From contig JACKIC010000007.1 of the NCBI GenBank assembly GCA_020638655.1, forward strand, positions 351,849 to 415,848: 64,000 bases of DNA, read 5' to 3'. The translations under genes and the position numbers were made by a program. Every line of letters starts with the position of its first letter. Within the stretch, counting starts at the first letter, position 1. Origin of the DNA: Planctomycetota bacterium (GTDB lineage: Bacteria; Planctomycetota; UBA1135; UBA2386). Under the pieces are notes generated by a model. The model saw nothing but the letters and a program-made list of their open reading frames with translations. It was not told the origin of the DNA and did no database searches. This document shows positions 6,896 through 33,022 of the stretch, in pieces.

Positions 6896-7097
6896 CTTCA
6901 CTGGAACGCGCGGGATGTCCGCTGCGGAGGAACCAATGTCGGCCTCCGACCACGGGGGCATGGTTTTTATTTCCGGTCGATGGAGCAAGGAAGTCGGAAG
7001 TCCTGGTTTCCGAGTTTCCGATTGCACCGTTTCGTCACCCAAGCTTCATTCCTTACGCGTCTTGTGAGGTGACTCGCGACACGCGCGCAGGCCCGGC

Positions 7098-7568
7098 ATG
7101 AAGCTCTCCGAACTCATCACCAGGGATCTCGTCGAACTCCCGCTGCAGGCTGCCGACAAGTGGCAGGCGCTGTCCGTGTTGGCCCGTGTGCCGGTGCGTG
7201 CCGGGCGCTATCCCGAGTCGCTGGTGCCGGCCGTCGAGCAGGCGCTGGTCGCCCGCGAACGCAGCATGACCACCGGCATGGAGCACGGCATCGCGATCCC
7301 GCACGCCGCGCTCGATGGCATCGACGATCTGGTCGCGGTGTTGGGGCTCAGCCCGCAGGGCATTCCGTTCGAGACCCTTGACGGCGCGCCGGCCCGCATC
7401 GTGATCGGCCTCGTGATCCCGCGCAGCAAGAAGCTCGCCCACATCAAGACGCTCGCCGAGATCGCCAAGCTGCTGTCGCGGGCCGAAGTCCGCGAGCGCC
7501 TGCTGCGCTGCGCCGACGCCGACGAGGTGGTGCAGGCGCTGCAGGAACTGCAGGCGCAGCCTCGCTGA
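7098..7568 (+). CDS. PTS EIIA type-2 domain protein (PtsN/EIIA-Ntr-like)
   Basis: 156 aa. GMEHGIAIPHAALDG holds the phosphorylatable His context of EIIA(Fru/Mtl/Ntr). No other PTS genes lie nearby. Confidence 0.7.
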   Translation: MKLSELITRDLVELPLQAADKWQALSVLARVPVRAGRYPESLVPAVEQALVARERSMTTGMEHGIAIPHAALDGIDDLVAVLGLSPQGIPFETLDGAPARIVIGLVIPRSKKLAHIKTLAEIAKLLSRAEVRERLLRCADADEVVQALQELQAQPR

Positions 7569-7630
7569 GTCTGGCTCGCTGAGTCTGGCTCGCTGAGTCT
7601 GGCTCACCGAGTCTGGCTCACCGAGTCTGG
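7561..7630. repeat. 14-bp tandem repeat x5 (ctcgctgagtctgg x3, ctcaccgagtctgg x2)
   Basis: Read directly. The first unit contains the TGA stop of the EIIA-like gene. The array ends about 50 bp before the next start codon. Confidence 0.9.
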
Positions 7631-7682
7631 CGGGGGGAGGGCAGCGGACCGCCGCGGGCGGTATCCTCTGCCGCCCGCACCG

Positions 7683-10202
7683 ATGTCCCGCACCGAGTCC
7701 TCAGCCCTGCCGCACGCCGTGGGAATGGCGGCGCGGACCGACCCGTTCGTGCTCGCGGCGTGGCTGCTGTGGTGCGCGGTCGCCGGCGCCGGGCTGGGCG
7801 TCGTGCACGGTTGTTGTGAGGTGCTGTGGCCGGCGCTGCTGGTGAGCCTCGGCGCCGCGTGCTGCGCTCGCGCCCTGACCGAGAGCGCCGGCGGGCGCAC
7901 CTTCCTCGCGGGGCTCGTCGTCGCCGCGGTCGCCGCGGTGGCGGTGCTCGGCCTCGCGCGCGACGCCACCTGGCCGGGGCCCGCTGAGTTGCTGGCCGGC
8001 GCGGTCGCGATCGGGGCGGCCTTCGGCCGGATCGTCGGCGCGCGCGCGGCGCCGCGGACCAGCGGCGAACTCGCGGCCGCGATCGCCGGTGCGGCGCTGG
8101 CGGCGGCGGCCGCGCACTACACCCCGCTCGCCTGGTCCTGGTTCGGGCCGCAAGCCGTCGTCGCCGCGCCGCTGTTCGGGCTGTTGCTGCTGTTGCCGCT
8201 GCTCGCCGAAGAACGGGCCTCCGGGTGCGCCGGCGCGCACCCGACCGATCGCCTCGCGGTCGCCGTGGCTCTGGTCGCGCTGGTTGGCCTGGGGCTGTGG
8301 GGCACCGACGACGCCGCGGCGCTGCCGTGGCGCGTGGCGCCGGCCGTGCTGTTGCTGCATGGCGCGGCGCTGCCCAGCCGCCGCTTGGTCGCGCTCGGCG
8401 CGGTCGCGGCCCTGGCCGCCGCGCCGATGATCGGCGGCGGCGCGGCGCTGCCGTCGCGCTACACGACCCTGCAGCGCGACGGTCGCGCGACGGCCGTCTA
8501 CGACCGGGCGACCCAGGAACTGCAGTTGCGCTGGGACGACGTGATCCTCGACGGAGCCGGCCCCGATCGGCCGCTGCCGCAGTTGCTGGCGACGTTGTTG
8601 CGCGCGGCTCTGCTGCCCGGTGATCGCGTGCTCCTGGTCGGGCTCGGCTGCGGGCGCCTGCCCGCGGCGCTGGCCGAGGCCGGCATCGGCGAGGTCGACG
8701 CGCTGTCGTTGCGCGCGGTGTCCCCGGCGCTGCGCGCCCGCCTGCAGCTCGACGGCCCGGTGCCGCTGCCGGCCGGCAGCGCGCCGGTGGCGATGCTGCC
8801 GTGTGCGCACGACCGGCCCTGGCGCGCGCAGCTGCGGCGGTTGCCCGCGGGTTCGCGGCAGGCGATCGTGATCGGCGAGCCGCTGCACGAACTCGCCACG
8901 GCGCAGGTCACCTTCGAGGTGCAGCGCGATCTGCGCCGCGTCGCGGGCGCCGGCCTGGTGCTGCAACCGTTCTGGCTCGATCGCGTGCCGTGCGCGCGGT
9001 TGCAGGCCCTGCTCGCGGCGGCGGCGGCGGCGCACGCGTGGAACGGCGTGTTCGCGGTCGGCGACTGCGGCGTGCTGGTGAGCGCCGGTGCGCCGCCGGA
9101 CTTCGCGGCCCGCGGCGCGTGGTCGGACTGGCCCGCGTCGGCGCGCTGGCTGGCCCACCGCGCGCACCTGGGGGGCGCGGCCGACGCGGACCTGGCGCGG
9201 CTGATCGTCGTCGACGCGGCGGCGGTGCCCGCGGCAGTCAGCGAGTTCGACGCCCTGCCGGCGCTCGGGGCGGTCGATCGCGGCGAGGTGCTAGCGCTGC
9301 TCGCGCGCGCGCAGGGCGCGCCGCCCGACGCGGCGTCCTTGCCGCGGCCGGCGGACGACAGTCTGTTCGCCGGATGGAGCCGCGTCGAAGCCGAGACCCG
9401 CCGCGCGGTGGCGACGATCCGCACCCTCGACGGCGAGGCGCTGGGCATGGCGGCGGCCTGGGCGCGCGCGCAGCAGCTCGCGGCCGCCAGTCTGCCGCGC
9501 GGCGCCCCGCGCGCCGAACTGCAGGCGGCGCTCGGCCTGCCCGGCGCCGACGGCGTGCCGCTGCTCGATCCCGGGGCCGCGGCCCTGCGGGCTCATTCGA
9601 TCGACCCGACGTTGTTCCATGAGACCCCGCGGATCTTCGCCGACCTGCCGCGGCCGAAGGCGTCGGCCGGCGACCTCGAGGACCTGGCGCGGTTGCCGGA
9701 GCCCGATCGGCTGGCCGAGCTGGCCAGCGGCACCGACGCGTTCGCGACGGCCCTGCGGGCCCGGTTCCCCAGCGACTGCGCGCGGGCCCTGCTCGCGCGG
9801 CTGCAGGCCGGCCCGCTCGACGAGGGGGCCTCGGTGGCCCTGCGCGAGCTCGCCGATCCGTTCGTCCTGGCCGAGGCCGGCCGCGTCGTCGGCGTGCCGG
9901 CGCGGCGCGCCGAACTGCTCGCCTGGTGGCGCGGCGACCTGCCGATGCCGGTCGCGCTGCAGCCGCTGGTCGTCGAGGCGCCGCTGCGGCTCGCTGCCGC
10001 GCTGCCGCGCCGCCGCGACGCCCGCGCCATGCTCGCGCTCGCCGATCTGCTGCTGTCGGACGATCTGCAGGTGCGCATCCGCGCCGCAGCGGCGCTGCGC
10101 GACGGCCCGGGGGCGGCGATCGCCTACGACCCGGAAGGTCCACCCGAGCAGCGGATCAGTGCGGCGGCGCGGCTGCGCTCGTTGCATAATCGCGCGCCAT
10201 GA
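7683..10202 (+). CDS. Large polytopic membrane protein with a spermidine-synthase/class-I-methyltransferase-like central module and a helical-repeat C-terminus
   Basis: 839 aa. The N-terminal roughly 270 aa are repeated hydrophobic helices. The centre reads YDRATQELQLRWDDVILDG...GDRVLLVGLGCGRLPAALAEAG (Gly-rich Rossmann motif). The C-terminus has HEAT-like LLLSDDLQVRIRAAAALRDG. Its stop overlaps the lpxD start (ATGA). Confidence 0.6.
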   Translation: MSRTESSALPHAVGMAARTDPFVLAAWLLWCAVAGAGLGVVHGCCEVLWPALLVSLGAACCARALTESAGGRTFLAGLVVAAVAAVAVLGLARDATWPGPAELLAGAVAIGAAFGRIVGARAAPRTSGELAAAIAGAALAAAAAHYTPLAWSWFGPQAVVAAPLFGLLLLLPLLAEERASGCAGAHPTDRLAVAVALVALVGLGLWGTDDAAALPWRVAPAVLLLHGAALPSRRLVALGAVAALAAAPMIGGGAALPSRYTTLQRDGRATAVYDRATQELQLRWDDVILDGAGPDRPLPQLLATLLRAALLPGDRVLLVGLGCGRLPAALAEAGIGEVDALSLRAVSPALRARLQLDGPVPLPAGSAPVAMLPCAHDRPWRAQLRRLPAGSRQAIVIGEPLHELATAQVTFEVQRDLRRVAGAGLVLQPFWLDRVPCARLQALLAAAAAAHAWNGVFAVGDCGVLVSAGAPPDFAARGAWSDWPASARWLAHRAHLGGAADADLARLIVVDAAAVPAAVSEFDALPALGAVDRGEVLALLARAQGAPPDAASLPRPADDSLFAGWSRVEAETRRAVATIRTLDGEALGMAAAWARAQQLAAASLPRGAPRAELQAALGLPGADGVPLLDPGAAALRAHSIDPTLFHETPRIFADLPRPKASAGDLEDLARLPEPDRLAELASGTDAFATALRARFPSDCARALLARLQAGPLDEGASVALRELADPFVLAEAGRVVGVPARRAELLAWWRGDLPMPVALQPLVVEAPLRLAAALPRRRDARAMLALADLLLSDDLQVRIRAAAALRDGPGAAIAYDPEGPPEQRISAAARLRSLHNRAP

Positions 10203-13122: not shown

Positions 13123-13126
<4 letters not shown>
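12377..13126 (+). CDS. Soluble histidine kinase with no recognisable sensor domain (HisKA + HATPase_c)
   Basis: H-box LLAGFAHEVRNPLSTI, N-box NLIRNAKEA, G1 DTGAGIP, G2 KKAGTGLGL. Start taken at MSQSVREERL (39 codons inside ORF 12260..). The stop overlaps the next start (ATGA). Confidence 0.85.
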
Positions 13127-14472
<1,346 letters not shown>

Positions 14473-15599: not shown

Positions 15600-16382
15600 A
15601 TGCGGCACCAAACGATGGCGACCGCTCCGCGACCCGACCCAGCCAGTGTTCCCCAGCCGCCCGCAGGCCCGCCGGCGGCCCGCGGCGCCAGCGACGTCTC
15701 GCTGCCCGGGGGGCTGTCCGCGGCCGTGCTGCAGCTTGCCGCCGCGCCGCAGATCGACGACGGCGAGCTGGTGCGGCGCACCCGGGCCGGCCAGGAGGAC
15801 GCGTTCGCGGCGTTGGTCGCGCGCTACCAGAAGCGCGCCTTCTGGATCGCCTTCCACGTCGTCGGCCGCGTCGAGGAGGCGCGCGACGTGGCCCAGGAGG
15901 CGTTCGTGCGGCTGTTCCGCTCGCTCGACAAGTACGACTTCGCGCGCAGCTTCTACACGTGGTTCTACCGCATCGTGATGAACCTCGCGATCGACTACCT
16001 GCGCAAGATCAAGAGCGCGCGCAGCAGCAGCATCGAGGACTTCGTGACGCTGCTGCCCGACGAGCGCGAGCCGCGCGGTTCGCAGGCGCTCGAGCGGGCC
16101 GAGGAGAACGCGCAGGTCTGGACCGTGCTCGAGAAGATCGACCCCAAGCTGCGGGCGGTGATCGTGATGCGCGACATCCACGGCCTGTCGTGCCGCGAGA
16201 TCGCGCCGATCCTGCGCATCACCCACGCCACGGCGCGCTGGCGGCTGCACCGCGGCCGTCAGGTGTTCCGCGAGTACTGGGAACGTCTGGTCTACGACGT
16301 CGACGAGCGGCGCGCACGGCAGGTGCGCGCGCAGGCGGGCAACGAGCCTGGCGAACTCGAGAACGGGAGCTGTGAGCAATGA
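15600..16382 (+). CDS. ECF (sigma-70 family group 4) sigma factor
   Basis: Region 2 (AFAALVARYQKRAFWIAFHVVG...DVAQEAFVRLF) and region 4 (LSCREIAPILRITHATARWRLHRGR). The N-terminus may be shorter. The stop overlaps the next start. Confidence 0.88.
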   Translation: MRHQTMATAPRPDPASVPQPPAGPPAARGASDVSLPGGLSAAVLQLAAAPQIDDGELVRRTRAGQEDAFAALVARYQKRAFWIAFHVVGRVEEARDVAQEAFVRLFRSLDKYDFARSFYTWFYRIVMNLAIDYLRKIKSARSSSIEDFVTLLPDEREPRGSQALERAEENAQVWTVLEKIDPKLRAVIVMRDIHGLSCREIAPILRITHATARWRLHRGRQVFREYWERLVYDVDERRARQVRAQAGNEPGELENGSCEQ

Positions 16383-23226: not shown

Positions 23227-23255
23227 ATCTTGGCGGGGGCGTGGGGCCCGGTCAA
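23227..23255 (-). promoter_or_regulatory. Candidate sigma-70-type promoter for tig (TTGACC-N17-CAAGAT on the minus strand)
   Basis: Hexamers read directly with 17-nt spacing, about 75 nt upstream of the tig ATG. The -35 TTG is the false start used by the ORF track. Confidence 0.3.
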
Positions 23256-23316
23256 GGCGACAACGGGTTCGCGGCCGAATGCGGCCCTGGGGGGGCGGGG
23301 CGCCGGCGGGGGGCGG

Positions 23317-24624
23317 CTACTTGGGGGCCTGTTCCTTGGCCTGCTGCTGCAGGAACGAGCGCACCTTCTCCTGGTCGAGCAGCACCCGCACCGCCTCGTC
23401 GTCCTGGCCGATCGCGACGATGTCGGCGACCAGCATGCCCGAGTTCTTCATGTGCTTGATCGCGTTCGAGGTCTTGCGGCGATGGGCCTCGCACTTGATC
23501 AGGCCGACGTAGGCGCGGCGCGACATCGACGGGCCGTTGGTGAACTCGAGGATCTTCTCGTAGTCGTCGGCCGCATCGGCGAACTCGCCGATCTCGAACT
23601 GCAGGCTCGCGCGCAGCTCGAACAGGGTCGCGTCGCGGCGCCGGTTGGGCTTGCGCAGCAGGTCGGTCAGCTGGCGCGTGACCTTGGTGACGCCCTGCTT
23701 CTCGCCGAGCGAGCGCATGGTCACCGCCGCCTCGACGCTGATCGAGCTCGGCTCGCCGTCGACGATCAGCTCCTGCAGGCGCCGCACCGTCGGTTCGTGG
23801 TCGTGCGGCGCGATCGTGGCGAGGCTGCGCACCAGTCGGCGGGTGTCCTGGTAGTCGAGCTTCTCGCGGTCGAGCAGCGGCAACAACGCCCGCGCGACGG
23901 CGTCGTTGCCGCGCACCGCGGCGGCGAAGTAGTCGATGTAGAGCGCCAGCAGCCGCTCGTCGGTCTCGGTGGCGAGCGCCTGCGCCACGGTGGTCGCGAC
24001 CTGCGGCGGTCGCGCGGCGACCAGATAGCGCAGCACCTCCTCGCGCACGCCGCGGTCGCTCGAGCCGAGCATGCCGACGACCTTGCCCGCGACCTGCGCG
24101 GCCTCGCGTTGGCGCAGCCCGCGCAGCACCAGCAGCCGTTCGTCGCCGGTGGTGCGCTCGAACAGGTCGCCGAGCACCTGCGCGGCGCGCGGCGTGTCGG
24201 CGTGGCCGAGCAGCCGGATCGCGTGCTCGCGGGCGGTGCCGGCCTTGCCGTTGGCCATCTCCGTCAGCGCGTCGAGGAACGACGCGGGGTCGAGGTGCTC
24301 GAGCACCCGGCGGCAGTTGGCGGCGAGGTTGCGCGAGGCGTCGCCGCCCTGCACGGGCTGCAGCTTCTCGAGCAGGAGCGGCACGATCGAGTCGCCGAGC
24401 GCCGCGACCTCCTTGATCTTCTTGTCGAGGAAGTCCGGGTTGTTGCGGTAGTCCAGGGCCAGGTCGGCCCAGAACGGCAGCAGCGCCTTCTCCTGCTCGG
24501 GGCGGACCCGCTCGGCGCGCGCGCGCGCGACCTTGGCCAGTTCGGCCAGGGACACCTGCGCCGCCGAGAACTGGCCCAGCGACAGCGAACACGACAGCAC
24601 CAGCAGCGACCACCTCACGGACAT
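23317..24624 (-). CDS. Secreted HEAT/ARM-like helical-repeat protein
   Basis: Signal peptide MSVRWSLLVLSCSLSLGQFSAAQ. Repeated LL..L.D.d..VR helical motifs. ORF 23317..26250 upstream of this Met is the antisense shadow of mnmG. Confidence 0.6.
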   Translation of the reverse strand: MSVRWSLLVLSCSLSLGQFSAAQVSLAELAKVARARAERVRPEQEKALLPFWADLALDYRNNPDFLDKKIKEVAALGDSIVPLLLEKLQPVQGGDASRNLAANCRRVLEHLDPASFLDALTEMANGKAGTAREHAIRLLGHADTPRAAQVLGDLFERTTGDERLLVLRGLRQREAAQVAGKVVGMLGSSDRGVREEVLRYLVAARPPQVATTVAQALATETDERLLALYIDYFAAAVRGNDAVARALLPLLDREKLDYQDTRRLVRSLATIAPHDHEPTVRRLQELIVDGEPSSISVEAAVTMRSLGEKQGVTKVTRQLTDLLRKPNRRRDATLFELRASLQFEIGEFADAADDYEKILEFTNGPSMSRRAYVGLIKCEAHRRKTSNAIKHMKNSGMLVADIVAIGQDDEAVRVLLDQEKVRSFLQQQAKEQAPK

Positions 24625-24840: not shown

Positions 24841-26649
24841 GTGACCGCGGACTTCGACGTGCTGGTGATCGGTGGTGGCCACGCCGGCGTGGAGGCGGCG
24901 ACGGCCGCGGCGCGACTCGGCTGCCGCACCGGCATGGTCGTGCTCGACCCGGCGGCGATCGGCCGCATGTCGTGCAACCCCGCGATCGGCGGCCTGGCCA
25001 AGGGCCAGCTGGTGCGGGAGGTCGACGCGCTCGGCGGCGAGATGGGGCTGTGCACCGACAACACCGGCATCCAGTTCCGCATGCTGAACACCAGCAAGGG
25101 GCCCGCGGTGCGCTCGCCGCGCGCGCAGTGCGACCGGCGCGACTACAACCGGGTGATGGTGCAGCGCGTGCTCGGCTACGCCAACCTGCAGGTGATCGCC
25201 GGCGAGGCCGTGCGGCTGCTGCCGCGCGCCGGCGGCGAGGCGATCGACGGCGTCGAGCTGGCTGATGGCCAGCGCCTGCTGGCCAAGGCCGTGGTGCTGA
25301 CCACGGGCACGTTCCTCGGCGGGCGCCTGTTCGCGGGTGCGTGGGACGAGCCGGGCGGTCGCTACGGCGAACGTCCCGCGGCGGCGATCAGCACCTCGCT
25401 GCGCGAGCTCGGGCTGCGGCTCGGGCGGCACAAGACCGGCACGCCACCGCGCCTGCGCCGCGACTCGATCGACTTCGGCGGCCTCGAGGAACAGCCCGGC
25501 GACGCGGCGCCGCAGCCGTTCTCGTTCCGCACCGCGCGGCTGCAGGTCGAGCAGCTGCCGTGCTGGCTGACCCGCACCACCGCGGCGACGCACGCGGTGA
25601 TCCGCGAGCACGCGCACCTGTCGCCGATGTTCGCGGGCCGCATCGTCGGCGTCGGCCCGCGCTACTGCCCGAGCGTCGAGGACAAGGTCGTGCGCTTCGC
25701 CGAGCAGCCGTCGCACGTCGTGTTCCTCGAGCCCGAGGGGCGCGACAGCGACGAGGTCTATCCCAACGGCCTGTCGACGAGCCTGCCCGAGGACGTGCAG
25801 CTGCAGTTCCTGCGCACGATCCCGGGGCTCGAACGCGTCGAGGTGCTGCGGCCGGGCTACGCGGTCGAATACGACTACATCCTCACCGACCAGATCCGCG
25901 GCGACCTGCACACCGCGGCGCTGCGCGGCCTGTTCGCGGCCGGGCAGATCAATGGCACCAGCGGCTACGAAGAGGCCGCGGGGCAGGGCCTCGTCGCCGG
26001 TCTCAACGCGGCGCGGTTCGCGCGCGGCCAGGAGCCCGTGGTCTTCGATCGCGCGACTGCCTACCTCGGCGTGATGGTCGACGACCTCTGCCGCGTCAAC
26101 CCGAGCGAGCCGTACCGGATGTTCACGAGCCGCGCCGAGTTCCGCCTGCTGCTGCGCAGCGACAACGCCGATCGCCGGCTGACGCCGCTCGGCGAACGGC
26201 TCGGCCTCGTCGATCCCGCCGCGGCCGCCGCGGTGCGCGACAAGGAGCACCGCATCCGTGGCGCCCTGCGCTGGCTCGAGCAGGCGCGCCGTCAGGGGCG
26301 CACGCTGACCGAATGGCTGCGCCGGCCCGAGGTGACCACCGCCGACCTGCTGGCGTGGGACGAGACGTTCGCGGGCATGACCCTGTCGAGCGCCGAGCTC
26401 AACGAGGTCGAGGCCGAGGTCAAGTACGCGGGCTACATCGATCGCCAGGCGATGGAGGTCGAGCGGCTGCAGCGGCTCGAGGGCAAACGCATCCCCGATG
26501 CGTTCGACTACGTCGCCCTGCCGGGGCTCAGCAACGAGGCGCGCGCGCGCCTGCAGCAGCGGCGGCCGCTGACGCTCGGCGAGGCATCGCGCATCGCGGG
26601 GGTGCGCCAGGCCGACGTGCAGCTGCTGCTGGTCGCGATCAGCCGCTGA
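24841..26649 (+). CDS. mnmG: tRNA uridine-5-carboxymethylaminomethyl modification enzyme MnmG (GidA)
   Basis: FDVLVIGGGHAGVEAA FAD motif followed by GGLAKGQLVREVDALGG. GTG start at 24841 preferred over the TTG at 24805. Confidence 0.95.
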   Translation: MTADFDVLVIGGGHAGVEAATAAARLGCRTGMVVLDPAAIGRMSCNPAIGGLAKGQLVREVDALGGEMGLCTDNTGIQFRMLNTSKGPAVRSPRAQCDRRDYNRVMVQRVLGYANLQVIAGEAVRLLPRAGGEAIDGVELADGQRLLAKAVVLTTGTFLGGRLFAGAWDEPGGRYGERPAAAISTSLRELGLRLGRHKTGTPPRLRRDSIDFGGLEEQPGDAAPQPFSFRTARLQVEQLPCWLTRTTAATHAVIREHAHLSPMFAGRIVGVGPRYCPSVEDKVVRFAEQPSHVVFLEPEGRDSDEVYPNGLSTSLPEDVQLQFLRTIPGLERVEVLRPGYAVEYDYILTDQIRGDLHTAALRGLFAAGQINGTSGYEEAAGQGLVAGLNAARFARGQEPVVFDRATAYLGVMVDDLCRVNPSEPYRMFTSRAEFRLLLRSDNADRRLTPLGERLGLVDPAAAAAVRDKEHRIRGALRWLEQARRQGRTLTEWLRRPEVTTADLLAWDETFAGMTLSSAELNEVEAEVKYAGYIDRQAMEVERLQRLEGKRIPDAFDYVALPGLSNEARARLQQRRPLTLGEASRIAGVRQADVQLLLVAISR

Positions 26650-26661
26650 GCGCGGCGCCGC

Positions 26662-27252
26662 TCACATCTGCAGCACGAACTTGACCAGCGCCTCGGTGTC
26701 GTCGCCGGGCACGCTGCGGCGCGCCTTCTCGACCCGCTCGCGCGCGTCCTTCTCGCTGTAGCCGAGCGTGATCAGCGCCGCGATCGCGTCGTCGGCGGTG
26801 CGCGACGGCAGCGGCCGGCTCGGCGAGGCGCCGGCCTCGACCTCGAGCTGCAGCTTGTGCATCGCGTCGCGCAGCTCCAGACAGATGCGTTCGGAGGTCT
26901 TCTGGCCGACGCCCTTGACGCGCTTGAGCGCGGGGCTGTCGCCGGCGGCGATCGCCGCGGCGAGGTCGTGCGGCGAGTAGACGCTGAGCAGGGCCAGCGC
27001 GATCGTCGGGCCGACGCCGGACACCGACAGCACCTTGCGCGCGATCTCGCGTTCGGCGCGCGTCGAGAACGCCAGCAGCGACGGCACGCTGTCGACGACG
27101 TGCAGCAGGGTGAACAGCTGGTGCTCCGCGCCGACCTGCAGCTCACCGGCGGTGTGCAGGGAGATGCGGCACTCGTAGCCGACCCCGCCGCAGCGCACCA
27201 CGGCGCGCGAGGCGTGCTTCTCGACGATCGGGCCGATCAGGTGGTCGTACAT
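26662..27252 (-). CDS. ruvA: Holliday junction DNA helicase subunit RuvA
   Basis: 196 aa. MYDHLIGPIVEK start, tandem HhH motifs (VSGVGPTIALALL, VKGVGQKTSERI), C-terminal domain III. Confidence 0.93.
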   Translation of the reverse strand: MYDHLIGPIVEKHASRAVVRCGGVGYECRISLHTAGELQVGAEHQLFTLLHVVDSVPSLLAFSTRAEREIARKVLSVSGVGPTIALALLSVYSPHDLAAAIAAGDSPALKRVKGVGQKTSERICLELRDAMHKLQLEVEAGASPSRPLPSRTADDAIAALITLGYSEKDARERVEKARRSVPGDDTEALVKFVLQM

Positions 27253-27305
27253 GCAGCGCCGTGCTGGCGGGCGCCGCAGCGCCCGCGTTCAGCGACCCGA
27301 GCCGA

Positions 27306-28622
27306 TCAGCCGCGCAGCGACAGACCCAGCTCGTCGAGCTTGGTCTTGATCTCGTTGAGCGAGGTCTGGCCGAAGTTCGGGCAGGCCAGCAGCTCGGCTT
27401 CGGTCTTGCTCGACAGGTCGCCGATCGTGCGGATCTTGAGCAGGTCGACGATGCGGCGGCTGCGCACCGACAGGTCCAGCTCGGTGATCGGCCGACGGAT
27501 CGGGTCCGGGCTCTCGGGGTCCGGCGCCTCTTCGGTGTGCACGACGGGCTCGCTGGCCTCGCCGAGGTCCTTGCTCATGAGCTCGTCGGCGGTCATGCCC
27601 AGGCGCAGCCCCTTGATCTTGAGGATGTCCTTGATCTCGTTGAGCGAGGTCTCGCCGAAGTTCTTGTAGCTGAGCAGCTCGGCCTCGGTCTTCTTCACCA
27701 GGTCGCCGAGCGACTTGATGTTCATCTTCGCGAGGCAGTTGCGGCTGCGCACCGACAGCTCGAAGTCGTTGATCGGGGTGCGCAGGAGCTTGTTGCGCTT
27801 GTCGTCGCGGCGCTCCTGGTCCTCGTCGTAGTACATGTTCAGCGCGGCGGCGGCGTCGCGGCGGAACAGGCGCGCGCGCGCGTTCTCCGGGTTGGCCTGC
27901 AGCGCCAGGTCGAAGCACTGCATCGCGCGGCGGTAGTTGCCGATGTCCTCGTAGAGGATGCCCAGGTTGACGACGCAGGCGGCGTTGACGGGCGGCAGCA
28001 TCAGCGCGCGCTCGTAGAGCTCGCGGGCCTCCTCGTCCTCGCCGCGCAGGTCGACGTTCACGGCCAGGCGGAACAGCGCGTAGCGGTGGTTGGGGTCGAG
28101 CGCCAGCACGTCGTCGTAGCAGGCGATCGCGCCTTCGCTGTCGCGGCGCAGTTCGCGCACGCGGCCGTCGAAGTACTTGCGGTCGGTTTCGCCGAGGTGG
28201 GTGCCGAGCTTGGCCAGGTCGGCCGCCAGGCGTTCGCCGTCGCCGATCGAGTCGAGCGCGCGCAGCCACGACAGCGCCTGCGCGGCGTCGGTGCTGCGCT
28301 TGGCGAGGATCGAGTCGACCTGGTCGATGTGGCCGAGCGCGGCGTGGTTGTCGGCGAGGCACAGGGCCACGGCCGGGTTGCTGCGTTCAGGTTCGAGCAG
28401 CGCCACCGACTCGGCGTGGCGGCCGAGCGCCCACAGCGCGACGCCGCGGGCGACGCCCTTGGCCATCGGCGTGCTGAGCCAGTCGCGCAACTCCTCGACG
28501 GAGTCGACCGTCTGGAACACCGCCTTGCGGAAGGCGTCGAGCTTGGCCTGATTGATTTCCCCGGCGAGCAGCGCCGAGGGGTCGAGCGAAGGAAGGGGTT
28601 CGTTCGTGACCGTGTCCGTCAT
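27306..28622 (-). CDS. TPR-repeat protein with two tandem RNA polymerase alpha-subunit C-terminal domains
   Basis: The N-terminal roughly 270 aa are TPR-like. Then LLRTPINDFELSVRSRNCLAKMNIKSLGDLVKKTEAELLSYKNFGETSLNEIKDILKIKGLRLGM and ITELDLSVRSRRIVDLLKIRTIGDLSSKTEAELLACPNFGQTSLNEIKTKLDELGLSL. Both align with E. coli alpha-CTD ([48 protein letters not shown]). Confidence 0.85.
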   Translation of the reverse strand: MTDTVTNEPLPSLDPSALLAGEINQAKLDAFRKAVFQTVDSVEELRDWLSTPMAKGVARGVALWALGRHAESVALLEPERSNPAVALCLADNHAALGHIDQVDSILAKRSTDAAQALSWLRALDSIGDGERLAADLAKLGTHLGETDRKYFDGRVRELRRDSEGAIACYDDVLALDPNHRYALFRLAVNVDLRGEDEEARELYERALMLPPVNAACVVNLGILYEDIGNYRRAMQCFDLALQANPENARARLFRRDAAAALNMYYDEDQERRDDKRNKLLRTPINDFELSVRSRNCLAKMNIKSLGDLVKKTEAELLSYKNFGETSLNEIKDILKIKGLRLGMTADELMSKDLGEASEPVVHTEEAPDPESPDPIRRPITELDLSVRSRRIVDLLKIRTIGDLSSKTEAELLACPNFGQTSLNEIKTKLDELGLSLRG

Positions 28623-28727
28623 CGATGGTCCTGCGTGTACGCACCGCGACGGTCTGCAGCGACATGCTGCACCCGGCGCGGGCGGCCGAATTGGGGCGGG
28701 AAGGTTAGGGGAGGGGGCCCTATCCGG

Positions 28728-30014
28728 TCAAGCGCGGCGCGGAACTGTGGCACAAACCTTGTGGTAGACGGCCACCAGGTCGGCGGTCATCGCCGCGAAG
28801 CCGCGCGCGCACCCGCGCGCCGCGCCGGCGAGGCGCCGGACCTCGCCCCGGTCCGCGGCCAGCCTGGCCAGGGCGCCGGCCCAGGCGTCCACGTCGCCCG
28901 GCGGCAGGACCAGCCCGGCCACCCCGTCTTCGACCGCGTCCTGCAGGCCGCCGACGCGGCTGACCAGCACCGGCCGACCGGCGGCGAGCGCCTCGCGCAC
29001 CGTGAGACCGAAGGCCTCGTGCCAAAGCGCCGGGGCCGCCAGCACGTCGATGCCGGCCAGGATGCGCGGCAACTCGGCCAGTCCGTAGGGGCCGTGGTAG
29101 CGGACCTCGTCGCCGGGCCGCAGTGCGGCGAAGCAGCGGGTCAGGTAGCCGTCGTCGCCGTGGTAGGGCACCGCGTTGCCGAAGGCCTCGATCGTGATCG
29201 CGCCCGGCGGCAGCTGGCGCCGCGCCGCCAACAGCACGTGCAGGCCCTTGCTCGGCATCAGCGTACCGAGGTAGCCGACGCGCAGCGGCCCGGGGCCGGC
29301 GGCGGGGGGCGGCAGGTGCTGCAGCGCCTCGGTGTCGACGCCGTTCTCGACGACCGTGAACCGCGCTTCGGGCACGCCCAGGGCCGCGAACGGCGGGATC
29401 GCGCGCCGGCTCGGCACGACCAGCGCCTGCGGCAGCGACAACGCCTGCAGCGCGCGCGCCTGCAACGCGGTGACCACCGCCTCGCGGTCGTCGTCGCGCA
29501 ACCAGAACGGGAACGTCGCCTGCAGGCACGAGGCGCAGCGCTCGGGCGCGGCGGTCTCGCAGCGTTCTCCGCGGTGGTGGAACATCTGGCCGCGCGGGCA
29601 GAACAGCCAGTAGTCGTGCAGGGTCAGCACGGTCGGCACGCCGGCGTCGCGCAGCACCGCCAGCGAATCGGTCGACATGCCGGTCAGGTGGTGCACGTGG
29701 GCGACGTCGAAGGTCTCGCCGGCGGCTGCGCGTTCGTCCAGGAACGACGCCAGCGCGGTCGCCATCGGCGCGCACGTGTACATCGCCTCGAGCGAATCGA
29801 CCCCCTGCCAGCGGTAGGCGACCCGGGTGACGCGGGGGTTGCCCGGCGCGCCGAGCCGGTGTTCGCCCTGGGCCAGCTCCGGCAGGTTGCCCCGCGCGTA
29901 GACGTGCACCTGGTGCCCGGCCCGGGCCAGTTCGGTGGCGAGGCCGAACACGTGCTGCTCGACGCCGCCGATGCTGTCGGGGGGGTAGCCGTGGCAGAGC
30001 AGCAGGATGCGCAT
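28728..30014 (-). CDS. Glycosyltransferase, GT-B fold (family 4-like)
   Basis: MRILLLCHGYPPDSIGGVEQH start and the C-terminal EAFGLTVREALAAGRPVLVSRVGGLQDAV motif. Start is 12 codons inside ORF 28728..30050. Confidence 0.85.
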   Translation of the reverse strand: MRILLLCHGYPPDSIGGVEQHVFGLATELARAGHQVHVYARGNLPELAQGEHRLGAPGNPRVTRVAYRWQGVDSLEAMYTCAPMATALASFLDERAAAGETFDVAHVHHLTGMSTDSLAVLRDAGVPTVLTLHDYWLFCPRGQMFHHRGERCETAAPERCASCLQATFPFWLRDDDREAVVTALQARALQALSLPQALVVPSRRAIPPFAALGVPEARFTVVENGVDTEALQHLPPPAAGPGPLRVGYLGTLMPSKGLHVLLAARRQLPPGAITIEAFGNAVPYHGDDGYLTRCFAALRPGDEVRYHGPYGLAELPRILAGIDVLAAPALWHEAFGLTVREALAAGRPVLVSRVGGLQDAVEDGVAGLVLPPGDVDAWAGALARLAADRGEVRRLAGAARGCARGFAAMTADLVAVYHKVCATVPRRA

Positions 30015-30101
30015 CAACCGCACAGTGCCGCGCCTGCGGCGGCCCGTCAAACCTGACCGCCCGCGGGTCGCCGGGAGTTGTGCGCGAGGCCGGGTTGGCG
30101 T

Positions 30102-30130
30102 TTGACGGCGACGCGATGCGGCGCTACGGT
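30102..30130 (+). promoter_or_regulatory. Candidate sigma-70-type promoter for rpmH (TTGACG-N17-TACGGT)
   Basis: Read directly, about 65 nt upstream of the rpmH ATG. Confidence 0.3.
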
Positions 30131-30193
30131 CCTCGCCCCCATTCCGGGTGCGGCGCTCGAACGAGCCCGCCGCCCGGCCCCGGAGTCCATCGC

Positions 30194-30328
30194 ATGAAGC
30201 TCAAGGTCCGTCGTTCGAAGATGAAGCGCCTCAAGAAGGTCGGCTTCCGTACCCGCAGCAAGACCGCCGGTGGCCGCAAGGTCATCAAGCGCAAGATCCG
30301 TCGCTCCGGCAAGTTCCGGGTCGGCTAG
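30194..30328 (+). CDS. rpmH: 50S ribosomal protein L34
   Basis: 44 aa: MKLKVRRSKMKRLKKVGFRTRSKTAGGRKVIKRKIRRSGKFRVG. It fits the L34 pattern (K/R-rich, GFR.R..T..GR.V...RR..GR). It is the internal Met of ORF 30080..30328. Confidence 0.85.
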   Translation: MKLKVRRSKMKRLKKVGFRTRSKTAGGRKVIKRKIRRSGKFRVG

Positions 30329-30791: not shown

Positions 30792-31547
30792 TCAGCCCGG
30801 CAGCTGGTTCTTGAGGAACGCCATGTCGGCGGCGAACTGCTGCAGCGCGCCGCGGTCGGCCTCGCTGATCTTGGTGAACTTGGCGGTGACGCGGATCGCG
30901 TCGTCGCCCGAGGGCTCGGTCGTGTCGACCACGGCGCCCAGCTCGAAGAAGCTGCGCTTGATCATCTTGACCTGGAACTTCAGGTGCACGTCGCCGCCGG
31001 CGAAGAACAGCTGCTTGGCCTGGTCGGCGCTGATGCCGGCCTTCTTGCCGCTCCAGACGAAGTGCACGCGCGCACCGTCGACGTTGAGCATCGTGCCGAG
31101 CAGCGTCTTCTTGCCGCCGATCATCTTGTTGCGGATCTCGTCCTCGAACGTGATCAGCACGCGCTCGCGGTCGACCGGGGCCTCGCCGGTCAGCTCGCGC
31201 TGGTTGAGGTGCTTGATGATCGCCTTGGTGGCGTCCTGCTCGCTGTCGTAGAGCGTGATCAGCTTGTCGATGCCGACCTTGCTGATCACGTCGCGCACGA
31301 ACGGCGACGGCTGCGCGACGACCAGCTCCCCACCCTCGGCGCGGCAGCGCTTGAAGGCCTTGATCACGGCGCCCAGGGCGGTGGAGTTGATGAACTTCAC
31401 CAGCCGCATGTCGAGGATCAGGTGGTTGATGCCACGCTCGACGAGGCCTTCCACTTCTTCCATCAGGGCTGGACAGTAGAAGGTGTCGAACTCGCCCTTG
31501 AGGGTGAGGACGGCGTAGTCATCGTGCTGCGACTTGTCGATCTTCAT
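30792..31547 (-). CDS. STAS-domain (anti-sigma-factor antagonist-like) protein with an extra roughly 130-aa C-terminal beta-rich domain
   Basis: The N-terminal roughly 110 aa match SpoIIAA/RsbV (YAVLTLKGEFD..., LDMRLVKFINSTALGAVI carries the phospho-Ser position). The C-terminal part (GTMLNVDGARVHF...) is PilZ-like at best and lacks RxxxR. Confidence 0.7.
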   Translation of the reverse strand: MKIDKSQHDDYAVLTLKGEFDTFYCPALMEEVEGLVERGINHLILDMRLVKFINSTALGAVIKAFKRCRAEGGELVVAQPSPFVRDVISKVGIDKLITLYDSEQDATKAIIKHLNQRELTGEAPVDRERVLITFEDEIRNKMIGGKKTLLGTMLNVDGARVHFVWSGKKAGISADQAKQLFFAGGDVHLKFQVKMIKRSFFELGAVVDTTEPSGDDAIRVTAKFTKISEADRGALQQFAADMAFLKNQLPG

Positions 31548-31681
31548 GGTTGGCTTGCGGCTCGGGTCTGCGACGGGAGTCTTGGGGCGCAGATTCTGGC
31601 GTTGGGCCGGCCCATCCGCAACGGCGGCCGCCTTTTCCCTAGGTGCGCGAGCTGGCTTCGCCGGCTAGATTGGCCTCGCCG

Positions 31682-33022
31682 ATGAAACGGTTATGGTTCT
31701 GGAAGCGGGCCGAAACGGGCAAGAACGAGCGCGGTCCGGTCGACGCGCGCGAGGGGTCGACCCTGTTGACCGGGGACCCCGACGAGGATTCCCGGTCGCT
31801 CGAGATCCTGCTCGACACGATCGCGGCGGTGACCCTCAACATCGACCTCGACGCGGTGCTGCGCGACATCGTCTCGCGGTCGCTGCTGGTGACGCGGGCC
31901 GAGCGCGCGATCCTGCTGCTCGGCGACACTCCCGACGAACTCAAGGTCCGGGTCGCCCAGGACCGCGAGGGGGAGGCGCTGCAGGGGGATCTGCAGTGGA
32001 GCCGCAGCCTGGTTCGCAAGTGCCTGGAGGAAGAGGTCGCCGTGCGTTCGGTGGTGCAGTCCGACCAGCAGGCGCTCGAACTCGGCCAGTCGGTCTACGA
32101 CCTCAAGCTGCGCGCCGTGATGTGCGCTCCGATGCTCGCCCGGGACCGCGTGATCGGCGTCATCTACGTCGACTCGCGCGCCGTGCGCCGCGAGTTCTCG
32201 GCCCGCGACCTGGCGCTGTTCGGCGCGATCTCGGCGCAGCTCGCCATCGCCGTCGAGAACGCTCGCCTGCACGCCGACTCGCTCGAGAAGGTGCGTCTGC
32301 AGAAGGACGTCGAGATCGCTCGCCGCATCCAGCAGCACCTGCTGCCCAAGCTGCCCGAGGACTGCGACGGTCTCGACATCAGCGTGCGTTACGAAGCGGC
32401 CGAGCAGGCGTCGGGTGACACCTACGACCTGGTGTCGTTGCCGGACGGCCGCCTCGCCATCGTCATCGGCGACGTCACCGGCCACGGCGTCGGCGCGGCG
32501 CTGCTGACCCACGCCGTGCAGGCGGCATTGCGCAGCTACCTCGAGACCATCGACGACCCCAGCGAGATCGTCACGCGGCTCAACCGCCGCCTCGTCGACG
32601 GTGTCGAGACCGGCAACTTCATGTCGCTGCTGCTGGTGATCCTCGACCCGCACAAGCGCACCCTGCAGTACGTCAACGCCGGACACCCGGGGCTCGTGCT
32701 GTGCGGCGAAGGCGGCTGTCGCGTGCTCGACAAGACCGGCATGGTGCTCGGCGTCGTCGGCGACCAGACCTACGAGGTCAGTCCCGTCGTGCAGCTGACG
32801 GCCGGCGACCTGCTGTTCCTGCACACCGACGGCGTCGACGAGACCATGTCGCCGTCGCGCGAGACCTTCGGGCTCGAACGGCTCTGCGCGGTGTTGCAGA
32901 AGCACCGCGCCAGCAGCGCCGAAGCCGTGCTCGCGCACGTCGACGCGGCGATCGCCGAACACGTCGGCGAGTCCGTCGCCCTCGAAGACGACGTCACCAT
33001 GATCGCCGTGAAGGTGCTCTAG
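31682..33022 (+). CDS. GAF-domain PP2C-type (SpoIIE/RsbU family) serine phosphatase
   Basis: GAF region (ILLL..., VIGVIYVDS) then RIQQHLLP...SGDTYDLV...IVIGDVTGHGVGAALL...LHTDGV. An alternative start lies at 31643. Confidence 0.88.
   Translation: MKRLWFWKRAETGKNERGPVDAREGSTLLTGDPDEDSRSLEILLDTIAAVTLNIDLDAVLRDIVSRSLLVTRAERAILLLGDTPDELKVRVAQDREGEALQGDLQWSRSLVRKCLEEEVAVRSVVQSDQQALELGQSVYDLKLRAVMCAPMLARDRVIGVIYVDSRAVRREFSARDLALFGAISAQLAIAVENARLHADSLEKVRLQKDVEIARRIQQHLLPKLPEDCDGLDISVRYEAAEQASGDTYDLVSLPDGRLAIVIGDVTGHGVGAALLTHAVQAALRSYLETIDDPSEIVTRLNRRLVDGVETGNFMSLLLVILDPHKRTLQYVNAGHPGLVLCGEGGCRVLDKTGMVLGVVGDQTYEVSPVVQLTAGDLLFLHTDGVDETMSPSRETFGLERLCAVLQKHRASSAEAVLAHVDAAIAEHVGESVALEDDVTMIAVKVL

Follow-up and report, generated by a model that had tools for sequence, protein, structure and literature searches.

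The gene examined here starts at an ATG codon on the minus strand and encodes a 438-residue protein in which a tetratricopeptide repeat (TPR) scaffold precedes two copies of the C-terminal domain (CTD) of the RNA polymerase α subunit. Its parts, together with the neighbouring ruvA, are collected in Table 1; the window in which they lie is the whole 64-kb stretch of DNA that was analysed. Scans of that window for tRNAs and Rfam families gave no matches. The product is identical (100%) to a database protein (P0001) annotated as 'MAG: tetratricopeptide repeat protein [Planctomycetes bacterium]' and is acidic overall, with a net charge of -15 and a pI of 5.1. That the open reading frame might be spurious or mis-annotated could be ruled out, as hundreds of genomes keep the gene.

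Table 1. Positions in the window of the TPR-αCTD gene, its parts and the downstream ruvA gene
Feature	Positions	Strand	Evidence
TPR-αCTD-αCTD protein, complete CDS, 438 aa + stop	27306..28622	-	ORF list, Pfam architecture
Helical-repeat (TPR-like) scaffold, about seven hairpins, residues 25-247	27882..28550	-	AlphaFold2, Foldseek, Pfam, alignments
Long connector helix, residues 248-282, runs into CTD1	27777..27881	-	AlphaFold2 model, alignments
α-CTD module 1 (CTD1), residues 283-343	27594..27776	-	Pfam, PDB phmmer, Foldseek, conservation
Acidic proline-rich variable linker, residues 344-377, predicted disordered	27492..27593	-	pLDDT, charge, alignment
α-CTD module 2 (CTD2), residues 378-438	27309..27491	-	Pfam, PDB matches, conservation
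33-nt motif copy in CTD2, encodes NFGQTSLNEIK	27345..27377	-	Nucleotide comparison
33-nt motif copy in CTD1, encodes NFGETSLNEIK	27630..27662	-	Nucleotide comparison
ruvA, 196 aa, 53 nt downstream of the TPR-αCTD gene	26662..27252	-	Pfam RuvA_N, HHH_5, RuvA_C

The TPR scaffold and the two α-CTD modules

Pfam TPR profiles score above their cutoffs at residues ~150-255 (TPR_2, 53 bits against 27; TPR_1, 47.8 against 27.8; TPR_8, 42.6 against 25.7), and AlphaFold2 models residues 25-247 as 14 helices with pLDDT values of 84-94. The Foldseek matches of the full-length model include consensus TPR (CTPR), APC/C, OGT, and PEX5 TPR proteins; because such matches dominated the list, the C-terminal half was modelled apart. 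Family alignments reveal that the ~150 N-terminal residues are variable and that residues ~145-250 are strongly conserved. The rigid connector, modelled as one helix (residues 248-280), carries the family motif RA.L[FY]..DA.A...MYYDED.ER..D.RN..L, which is near-invariant among close relatives and conserved among distant ones. The linker between the two modules has a net charge of -7, falls below a pLDDT of 50 at residues 355-364, and occupies variable columns of the alignment.

Over the whole protein, the Pfam profile RNA_pol_A_CTD (PF03118) reaches 140.1 bits against a cutoff of 23.8 (E=1.9e-41) in two stretches, the first of which covers residues 273-335. A phmmer search of the PDB matched CTD1 to the α-CTDs of Pseudomonas, Caulobacter, and E. 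coli with E values of about 1e-17, and the PDB matches for CTD2 span residues 364-437. The model of residues 254-438 has a mean pLDDT of 77.4 and four helices in each module, both of which are predicted to adopt the compact α-CTD fold with its two helix-hairpin-helix-like motifs. Its top Foldseek matches in the PDB are exclusively RNA polymerase α-CTDs, with target-normalised TM scores of 0.81-0.94 against isolated α-CTD chains and rmsd values of 0.6-1.2 Å over ~66 residues at 51-56% identity. An earlier note, made from the DNA sequence, had described a TPR protein with two α-CTD modules and had proposed structure prediction as a check on the fold; the description is borne out by Pfam, the AlphaFold2 model, and Foldseek. 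The RuvA-type helix-hairpin-helix profile HHH_5 remained below its cutoff on this protein (15.4 bits against 27, E=0.026).

The same note held that the protein is not the polymerase subunit itself, and several lines of evidence agree. Pfam finds no match to RNA_pol_L or RNA_pol_A_bac, the domains of the α N-terminal half, anywhere in the protein. Eight NCBIfam RpoA equivalogs align through just their C-terminal ~70-90 positions (~216-329) and score 81.9-153.9 bits against cutoffs of 227.8-523 (in one case 153.9 against 302). When E. coli RpoA was compared with the 64-kb window by tblastn, matches were found at the two CTDs only, and residues 1-232 gave nothing significant. The local neighbours are a GT4 glycosyltransferase, ruvA, and mnmG rather than the members of an rpsM-rpsK-(rpsD)-rpoA-rplQ cluster. 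Lacking the N-terminal domain and lying outside the ribosomal-protein/rpoA cluster, the protein cannot be α itself.

Pairwise alignment to E. coli α places the equivalents of R265, G296, and S299 at R292, G323, and S326 in CTD1 and at R387, G418, and S421 in CTD2, whereas K297/K298 are replaced by E324-T325 and Q419-T420, respectively. The earlier note had read both the retention and the replacement from the sequence, and both prove to be conserved family-wide. Per-position conservation was computed over 32 diverse family members, among which Glu stands at position 297 of CTD1 with a frequency of 0.91 and Thr at position 298 with a frequency of 0.94 in either module; by contrast, the three genuine α-CTDs aligned (Pseudomonas, Caulobacter, and E. 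coli) keep K/R-K. On these alignments, the E-T and Q-T pairs are a conserved family signature and not noise. In E. coli α, K298 reportedly makes an important contact to the DNA backbone.

The two modules differ in what else they retain. CTD1 keeps the equivalents of D259, E261, R265, N268, C269, N294, G296, and S299, with Arg in place of A267, as well as those of T285, E286, and E288. Across the 32 members, the R265, N294, G296, and E286 equivalents of CTD1 are invariant and those of D259, E261, N268, C269, and S299 are conserved at 0.84-0.97. At the level of residues, the '265 determinant' of CTD1 thus has its R, N, C, G, and S at 0.91-1.00 and Thr for K298, and the '261 determinant' (D259, E261) is present as D286 (0.84) and E288 (0.91). 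In α, the acidic '261 determinant' contacts sigma region 4. CTD2 retains the R265, N294, G296, and S299 equivalents; within its '265 determinant', R, G, and S are conserved, N268 and C269 are variable, and K298 is again Thr, and its '261 determinant' positions are weakly conserved (0.44 and 0.34). Mean identity across the family is 69% between CTD1 sequences and 50% between CTD2 sequences, compared with a mean column identity of 36% for the whole alignment.

Conservation within the protein peaks in CTD1, which is 52% identical to the E. coli α-CTD, the usual level between orthologous α-CTDs of different phyla. Conservation like that of a genuine α-CTD is what would be expected if the ancestral interaction surfaces were still in use. 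The charge of the module is of a different kind, CTD1 being basic (net charge +3, pI 9.3) and the E. coli α-CTD slightly acidic (-1, pI 5.7). Taken together, the conserved replacement of K297/K298 and the substitution of Arg for A267 suggest that DNA is bound in a changed mode and not by a plain copy of UP-element recognition.

Age of the duplication and extent of the family

The sequences encoding the two modules form a direct repeat of 156 nt (27336-27491 and 27621-27776) that is 76% identical at a spacing of 285 nt, and the modules share 49% identity as proteins. Within the repeat, the two motif copies of Table 1 match at 32 of 33 nt. The near-identity of about 30 nt reported in the earlier note is therefore real; the recent duplication or gene conversion that the note took it to imply finds no support. 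Of the 64 modules in 32 diverse members, 60 have the corresponding module of another species as their nearest neighbour, from which it follows that the duplication is older than the radiation of the family; by these comparisons, CTD1 and CTD2 form separate lineages in all members. Moreover, the motif pair recurs in the orthologous loci, where 11 of the 13 closest have it at 28-31/33 identity and the other two at 25/33 and 27/33, and on both grounds a recent duplication was rejected. Orthologues share the match because NFG[EQ]TSLNEIK is conserved and is written in preferred GC3 codons. Identical codons between the modules do occur in modest excess (30 of 34, where 21.7±2.6 are expected; z=3.5 under the gene's own codon usage), and on this count small-scale conversion is possible, although not required.

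The search for a TPR domain combined with two RNA_pol_A_CTD domains, which the earlier note had recommended, leads to a large family in the Planctomycetota with generic database names. It comprises 409 clusters at 50% identity with E<=1e-30, is present in at least 594 species genomes, and has a length of ~430-470 residues in nearly all of the best 150 clusters. NCBI names its members 'DNA-directed RNA polymerase subunit alpha C-terminal domain-containing protein' or 'tetratricopeptide repeat protein'. Among 80 retrieved genomes, all that are classified belong to the Planctomycetota, except one labelled Anaerolineales. A homologue search with the member at one locus (L066) returned short-form MAG proteins only, assigned to the Phycisphaerae wherever a class is named. 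The window protein bears the full signature of the family in its architecture, its length, the motifs MYYDED.ER, NFGETSL (CTD1), and NFGQTSL (CTD2), and its place upstream of ruvA, the genomic context taken to define the family being a position upstream of ruvA and/or of spoIID-tgt-yajC. These data show a single orthologous housekeeping family that extends over the whole of the Planctomycetota and is almost absent outside them. Full-text searches of the literature yielded no functional study of the architecture of a TPR domain with two α-CTDs, in keeping with the note's remark that no characterised example was known, and the Tuwongella proteome paper makes no mention of the protein.

Gene neighbourhood and the probable counterpart in Planctopirus limnophila

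The neighbours of the gene were identified in 83 related loci by HMM searches of all stop-to-stop open reading frames. In 51 of these loci, ruvA lies directly downstream on the same strand, and 34 of the 51 involve members less than 50% identical to the window protein, a distance at which the GT4 and mnmG neighbours are not conserved. Taken over all 52 same-strand pairs, the median gap to ruvA is 26.5 nt, and a scan of positions 26500-30300 for terminators and promoters found no match, including between the TPR-αCTD gene and ruvA. It is probable that ruvA is its co-transcribed partner. Seventeen other loci have spoIID-tgt-yajC downstream without ruvA, and two (L036 and L055) have the order family gene-ruvA-...-spoIID-tgt-yajC. 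A functionally mixed ruvAB-queA-tgt-yajC supercluster is known from other bacteria, and the order in those two loci resembles it; the genes may therefore be adjacent because they share housekeeping expression, not because they share a function. Usually the TPR-αCTD gene heads an old housekeeping gene cluster. Neither this operon-like link to ruvA nor the phylum-wide size of the family had been picked up in the earlier note.

In Planctopirus limnophila, Plim_0602 is the probable orthologue, as judged from its annotation, the length inferred for its product, its phyletic distribution, and a neighbouring gene. It was scored as essential in a TraDIS study, with an insertion index of 0.000738 (PMC10632474, Supplementary Data 2 and 6); this index corresponds to a single insertion over 1355 bp and so gives a product of ~451 residues. 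Plim_0602 was reported to have matches in 42 of the 45 Planctomycetes, in 42 of the 79 PVC genomes, and in none of the 4655 prokaryotes (PMC10632474), and two genes from it there is a SpoIID/LytB gene (PMC10632474), the context that is also seen in 17 family loci. The likely orthologue is one of the ~100 essential genes of this species that were reported as specific to Planctomycetes and of unknown function (PMC10632474). The TPR-αCTD gene is probably essential. The true rpoA of P. limnophila is a different gene from Plim_0602, namely Plim_0499 in the rpoA cluster; its index of 4/1010 corresponds to ~336 residues, long enough for a CTD of its own. It follows that the TPR-αCTD protein adds to α and does not replace the CTD of α, and a split α in which it would supply the sole CTD was rejected on the same ground. 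Both ruvA and ruvC are also essential in P. limnophila (PMC10632474), where ruvA (Plim_2446) is far from Plim_0602.

Candidate roles in transcription and genome maintenance

The best explanation, to which we would give a probability of roughly 0.4, is that the protein is a lineage-specific adaptor associated with DNA and RNA polymerase. CTD1, which is basic and has the minor-groove Arg, most of the '265 determinant', and the '261 determinant', would sit, like a genuine α-CTD, on DNA and/or on the surfaces of α-CTD partners; CTD2, being flexibly tethered, would contribute a further, weaker contact; and the TPR domain would recruit or hold a partner, TPR superhelices commonly serving to bind peptides or proteins. 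The likely role of such an adaptor would be that of a general factor comparable to the essential, phylum-specific transcription factors CarD and RbpA of the Actinobacteria and GrgA of Chlamydia. Against it stand the Thr at position 298 of both modules and the Glu at position 297 of CTD1, the acidity of the protein as a whole (net charge -15, pI 5.1), and the absence of transcription genes among the conserved neighbours ruvA, spoIID, tgt, and yajC. We regard as unlikely the proposal that the protein is an essential, phylum-specific general factor that would supply paired α-CTD-like modules in trans, docking next to sigma region 4 and on the DNA upstream in the manner of a third and a fourth α-CTD and coupling RNA polymerase to a TPR-bound partner. 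The earlier note had raised mimicry of the α-CTD or competition with it, which is one among several readings compatible with the data. It is also quite improbable that the modules are decoys of this kind, which would bind DNA poorly because of the K297E/Q and K298T changes and would sequester, or compete for, activators or the sigma region 4 that contacts the real α-CTD, with the TPR domain adding regulation or oligomerisation. The family-wide E/Q-T at 297/298, where the three genuine α-CTDs have K/R-K, would suit such a decoy, as would the retained D259, E261, T285, E286, and E288 equivalents of CTD1 and the acidity of both the linker and the protein; however, a pure protein decoy has no known need for the (near-)invariant DNA-contact R265, N268, C269, G296, and S299 equivalents of CTD1, and CTD2, too, keeps R265, G296, and S299. 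Also at odds with a decoy are the Arg added at A267, beside the DNA-contacting residues, and the basic character of CTD1, and it would be an odd function for a near-universal, probably essential housekeeping gene.

Two further readings dispense with the polymerase. An accessory role in RuvA-linked recombination or repair, in which the two (HhH)2-type modules would bind branched or duplex DNA non-specifically in the manner of RuvA domain II and the TPR domain would contact RuvA, RuvB, or another repair protein, is suggested by the 51 of 83 loci with ruvA next downstream on the same strand (34 in members less than 50% identical), the median gap of 26.5 nt over 52 pairs, the lack of a terminator-like site between the genes in the window, and the loss of the GT4 and mnmG neighbours at the same distance. 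The essentiality of ruvA and ruvC in P. limnophila, like that of Plim_0602, is in line with such a role, and so is the shared fold class, the α-CTD and RuvA domain II reportedly both being of the SAM-like/(HhH)2 type (SCOP a.60). We nevertheless consider this role unlikely: 17 loci have spoIID-tgt-yajC without ruvA, Plim_2446 is far from Plim_0602, the L036 and L055 arrangements resemble the mixed ruvAB-queA-tgt-yajC supercluster, and the modules are α-CTDs by sequence (E about 1e-17), not RuvA-type (HHH_5 E=0.026). The protein might instead organise the nucleoid independently of RNA polymerase, its tethered modules and a self-associating TPR domain bridging or coating DNA. Two separately tethered modules of a DNA-binding type would lend themselves to this, in a phylum-wide, probably essential protein of the Planctomycetota, which have an unusual condensed nucleoid and are not known to have FtsZ. 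Yet the acidity of the protein counts against it, oligomerisation is an assumption of the reading, and a generic DNA bridger would not need the protein-contact D259, E261, E286, and E288 equivalents of α that CTD1 keeps; we consider it distinctly unlikely.

To our knowledge, few regulatory surfaces of bacterial transcription have been studied as well as the α-CTD, which is almost always discussed within RpoA. Here it is duplicated, moved to a TPR scaffold, and held under strong purifying selection across a phylum. The domain is the same as that of RpoA by sequence (140 bits in total) and predicted fold, and CTD1 shares its determinant residues; the protein differs in having no α N-terminal domain, in carrying tandem CTDs on a TPR scaffold, and in the changes of K297/K298 to E/Q-T and of A267 to Arg, and its gene lies outside the rpoA cluster, with a separate rpoA of normal length in at least P. 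limnophila. Should the protein act at promoters, it would count as a general transcription factor of a new kind and would show how planctomycete transcription departs from the E. coli model; if paired modules are supplied in trans, it would represent a new class of RNA polymerase accessory subunit, exapted from the C-terminal domain of α itself; and if the protein works with RuvA or on the nucleoid, the α-CTD fold would have been reused for genome maintenance. As P. limnophila has genetic tools, the protein is a genetically tractable target.

CarD, RbpA, and GrgA share with the window protein a spread that is lineage-restricted but near-universal inside the phylum, essentiality, which is probable for the window protein, and a pairing of DNA-contacting with protein-interaction modules; there is no relation of sequence or fold, and the analogy is one of proposed role only. 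SARP/AfsR-type and RNPP regulators follow the same logic of a DNA-contacting module with a TPR domain for a partner or ligand, but the window protein has its TPR domain first and an α-CTD instead of a winged helix or HTH, and they are pathway-specific regulators whereas its gene is a probably single-copy housekeeping gene. RuvA domain II and other (HhH)2 modules are of the same fold class and bind the DNA backbone and minor groove through paired helix-hairpin-helix motifs without strong sequence specificity, and the gene usually adjoins ruvA; the window protein, however, has α-CTD-type sequence and is without the tetramerisation and RuvB-binding domains. The BREX protein PglW has a local match to the same domain (positions 784-859, E=1.3e-07), and a PglW-related defence component was considered and rejected, given a match of only 70 residues (PADLOC 29.9 bits; NCBIfam 29.8 against a cutoff of 990), no kinase or further PglW domain, a different architecture, and housekeeping neighbours in place of a defence system. 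Local α-CTD-like matches, far below the family cutoffs, also occur with the stand-alone family PRK07758 (36.9 bits) and at the β′ C terminus of PRK14906 (positions 1316-1375).

Architecture and predicted fold

The Pfam model RNA_pol_A_CTD matches the family protein twice (140.1 bits against a cutoff of 23.8, E = 1.9e-41, best stretch at residues 273-335), defining the modules referred to here as CTD1 and CTD2, and several TPR families score above threshold over residues ~150-255. In profile searches of NCBIfam and Pfam, no curated family covers the whole protein. The NCBIfam equivalog models for RpoA align solely by the final 70-90 positions, with scores far under their cutoffs, and tblastn of E. 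coli RpoA against the window matched the two C-terminal modules alone, with no significant match to alpha residues 1-232 anywhere in the 64 kb, from which rpoA itself is absent. These results exclude that the protein is the polymerase subunit. In alignment with E. coli alpha, whose residue numbers are used here, R265 corresponds to R292 in CTD1 and R387 in CTD2, G296 to G323 and G418, and S299 to S326 and S421, with K297-K298 replaced by E324-T325 and Q419-T420.

An AlphaFold2 model of the full protein (mean pLDDT 82.7) contains 14 helices, or about seven TPR-like hairpins, in residues 25-243, followed by a single long helix (248-280), CTD1 (283-343) and CTD2 (378-436). The acidic linker between the modules is predicted to be disordered (pLDDT <50 at 355-364). 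By computation, this linker carries a net charge of -7, CTD1 is basic (net +3, pI 9.3), CTD2 is neutral, and the whole protein has a net charge of -15 and a pI of 5.1. Because Foldseek returned only TPR proteins when queried with the full model, residues 254-438 were modelled on their own with 31 homologues; every top PDB match was then an RNA polymerase alpha-CTD, from Caulobacter, E. coli, Vibrio, Bacillus and Streptomyces. These superpose with target-normalised TM-scores of 0.81-0.94 (isolated alpha-CTD chains) and an rmsd of 0.6-1.2 Å over ~66 residues, at 51-56% identity. An earlier note on this DNA had described the same retained and replaced residues, had ruled out the polymerase subunit and would have counted a structure prediction lacking the alpha-CTD fold as a refutation; the residues and the exclusion of the subunit are borne out, and the prediction does recover the fold.

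Coordinates of the features discussed (positions in the window unless a locus is named)
Feature	Position	Strand	Remarks
TPR-2x alpha-CTD ORF	27306-28622	-	ATG start, 438 residues
Short-form member	L066:5872-6867	+	also proteins P0271-P0389 (database homologues)
453-aa ORF	23252-24613	-	between trigger factor and mnmG
Tandem repeat of 14-nt CTCGCTGAGTCTGG	7561-7631		five copies, 96% matches, intergenic
Ala-rich ORF	7683-10202	+	839 aa
STAS protein of divergent pair	30792-31547	-	~145-residue C-terminal extension
Phosphatase of divergent pair	31643-33022	+	GAF + SpoIIE (PP2C)
Other housekeeping region	2769-7042	-	ordinary chromosomal content
Other housekeeping region	13123-14472	+	ordinary chromosomal content
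Other housekeeping region	15600-16382	+	ordinary chromosomal content

Distribution, conservation and age of the duplication

An identical protein is deposited at NCBI as 'MAG: tetratricopeptide repeat protein [Planctomycetes bacterium]' (469,646-bp contig). The best 120 database matches share 72-86% identity, are nearly all 434-445 aa long, and are named either as TPR proteins or as 'DNA-directed RNA polymerase subunit alpha C-terminal domain-containing protein'; the JGI name for these homologues, subunit alpha, is wrong. A search of 1.84 billion representatives, clustered at 50% identity, gave 409 clusters at E ≤ 1e-30, the best 150 of which are almost all 430-470 aa with full-length matches at 36-64% identity. 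When a single genome was scanned for each species, at least 594 species proved to have a relative. Among 80 loci fetched from that scan, those that are classified carry labels of Planctomycetota or of groups within it (Phycisphaerae, Sedimentisphaerales, Tepidisphaeraceae, Fontivita pretiosa, Brocadiia, Pirellulales, Gemmatales and Planctomycetales), apart from one Anaerolineales and a few entries named 'bacterium'. MAGs labelled Phycisphaerae commonly have a short form, ~320-330 aa in length, in which the two modules follow just 3-4 TPRs. The component domains are textbook and the architecture is already in databases under generic names in thousands of copies, so nothing here is peculiar to the window. 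One contig of a MAG labelled Candidatus Kuenenia stuttgartiensis (L006, CAMAUH010000013.1) carries a 78%-identical copy at 67% GC, with the GT4/ruvA/mnmG synteny of the window's high-GC clade; it is probably mis-binned or mislabelled.

Among close relatives there is hardly any variation over residues ~180-438, in contrast to the first ~150, which vary. Across 32 diverse members, mean column identity is 36% over the whole alignment, and mean pairwise identity is 69% for CTD1 and 50% for CTD2. CTD1 averages 52% identity to the E. coli alpha-CTD, about the usual value between orthologous alpha-CTDs of different phyla. Invariant or nearly so in CTD1 are the equivalents of the DNA-binding residues R265, N268, C269, N294, G296 and S299, of T285, E286 and E288, and of the acidic D259 and E261, which in alpha contact sigma region 4. 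Conservation also extends to three changes in CTD1 that are specific to the family (A267 to R, 0.97; K297 to E, 0.91; K298 to T, 0.94). CTD2 keeps R265, N294, G296 and S299, has T at 298, and is variable at the N268 and C269 equivalents. Three genuine alpha-CTDs from the PDB matches read NLGKKSL (in a chain that we take to be from Pseudomonas), NFGRKSL (Caulobacter) and NLGKKSL (E. coli), all with Ala at 267.

At the DNA level, the modules form a 156-nt direct repeat of 76% identity, 285 nt apart, within which 27345-27377 and 27630-27662 agree at 32 of 33 nt. The near-identical stretch of about 30 nt to which the earlier note drew attention is thus real, but the recent duplication or gene conversion that it was taken to imply is not upheld. 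The two modules share only 49% protein identity, for 60 of the 64 modules compared (32 diverse members) the nearest neighbour is the same module from a different species, and NFGETSL in CTD1 and NFGQTSL in CTD2 recur almost everywhere; the duplication is therefore older than the radiation of the family. Nor does the 33-nt identity signal a recent event, because the stretch encodes NFG[EQ]TSLNEIK, a peptide that ranks among the best conserved in the domain, in preferred GC-ending codons, and because in 11 of the 13 closest orthologous loci (L001-L013) the two motifs of a locus agree at 28-31 of 33 bases (25 and 27 in the remaining two). Identical residues share a codon in 30 of 34 cases, against 21.7±2.6 expected from window codon usage; taking the expectation from the codon usage of the gene itself gives a z-score of 3.5 (family mean 1.2). 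There may be small conversion tracts between the modules of this gene, although conserved positions with a stronger codon bias would equally produce such an excess.

Gene neighbourhood and the Planctopirus limnophila gene

In the window, ruvA lies 53 nt 3' of the family gene on the same strand, with mnmG convergent beyond it and a GT4 glycosyltransferase gene upstream, and a scan of 26500-30300 gave no terminator-like site. Across 83 related loci, ruvA directly follows the family gene with the same orientation in 51, is 1.3 kb away in one and convergent in two; the median gap is 26.5 nt (52 same-strand pairs), and 34 of the close same-strand pairs belong to members <50% identical to the window protein. 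The GT4 and mnmG neighbours are conserved among close relatives only. The ruvA linkage is real and operon-like. In 17 other loci spoIID lies downstream, usually followed by tgt and yajC, and spoIID is likewise the usual next gene, instead of ruvA, for the short form. Two loci (L036 and L055) carry both arrangements, with ruvA next to the family gene and spoIID and tgt after ~2 kb (yajC next in L036), which joins the two contexts and suggests that they derive from one ancestral housekeeping cluster. Since the cluster ruvAB-queA-tgt-yajC(-secDF), widely conserved in other bacteria, is functionally mixed, linkage to ruvA is weaker evidence of shared function than first appears.

Both ruvA and ruvC are non-essential in E. 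coli. In TraDIS data for P. limnophila, they are scored essential (Plim_2446 and Plim_2444, with the unnamed Plim_2445 between; PMC10632474), as is Plim_0602, at an insertion index of 0.000738007 (PMC10632474 Supplementary Data 2 and 6). This index equals 1/1355, implying a 1356-bp gene of ~451 codons, and lengths worked out in this way for the neighbouring genes are sensible. The Supplementary Data record matches to Plim_0602 in 42 of 45 Planctomycetes, 42 of 79 PVC genomes and none of 4655 prokaryotic species, and Plim_0600, a SpoIID/LytB gene, lies two genes away, in agreement with the family context. The annotation and length of Plim_0602, together with its phyletic pattern and neighbour, lead us to infer that this gene, which the text of PMC10632474 does not discuss, is a family member. 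The true rpoA is Plim_0499, within the ribosomal-protein cluster (PMC10632474); its index of 4/1010 corresponds to ~336 aa, with room for its own CTD.

Possible roles, and other features of the window

The family protein is phylum-wide, of a single lineage and strongly constrained, combining a TPR scaffold with two alpha-CTD-derived modules, and its gene usually has the same orientation as ruvA and nearly adjoins it. As CTD1 keeps the DNA-contact and sigma-contact residues as well as a true orthologue would, the most economical interpretation is that its surfaces are still used. We tentatively favour, at a probability of about 0.4, an adaptor associated with DNA and/or RNA polymerase, in which the DNA- and sigma-contact surfaces that CTD1 inherited from alpha would remain in use and the TPR domain would hold a partner. 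The conserved K298T and K297E/Q could be read as a loss that leaves the modules only the protein contacts of alpha-CTD, as in a decoy, the mimic or competitor suggested in the earlier note, a role that we consider rather improbable; the R265, G296 and S299 equivalents are invariant in both modules, which speaks against a pure decoy. Together with the compensating A267R, the changes at 297 and 298 argue for a modified DNA-binding mode.

The linkage to ruvA supports an accessory role in recombination, which we consider unlikely; the alternative spoIID-tgt-yajC arrangement and the separation of Plim_0602 from ruvA in P. limnophila dilute that support. The anatomy of the protein is compatible with nucleoid organisation, a role that we consider rather improbable. 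Literature on the TPR-2x alpha-CTD architecture gave no functional study, in agreement with the earlier view that it has no characterised example. An essential, phylum-specific protein in which alpha's regulatory domain occurs twice would be of interest to the fields of bacterial transcription and planctomycete cell biology.

Elsewhere in the window, the 453-aa ORF has no Pfam match and a syntenic 429-aa gene in two of the closest loci (L001 and L003) shows no more than a faint match to HEAT_2; it appears to be a conserved uncharacterised protein. Other genes encode a T2SS/T4P-type ATPase, a secretin, LpxD, an NtrC-type sigma-54 activator, AccA, an ECF sigma factor, RlmN, ClpX, trigger factor and YidC, and scans for tRNA genes and Rfam matches found none in the window. 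The tandem repeat stands just 5' of the Ala-rich ORF, which has no Pfam match and begins with hydrophobic stretches suggestive of membrane spans; most of this ORF falls within the GC maximum of the window (78.7%, 8-10 kb). The divergent pair resembles a partner-switching module, and close relatives, for instance L004, L005, L008, L010 and L014, also have the STAS gene in the vicinity of the family gene.
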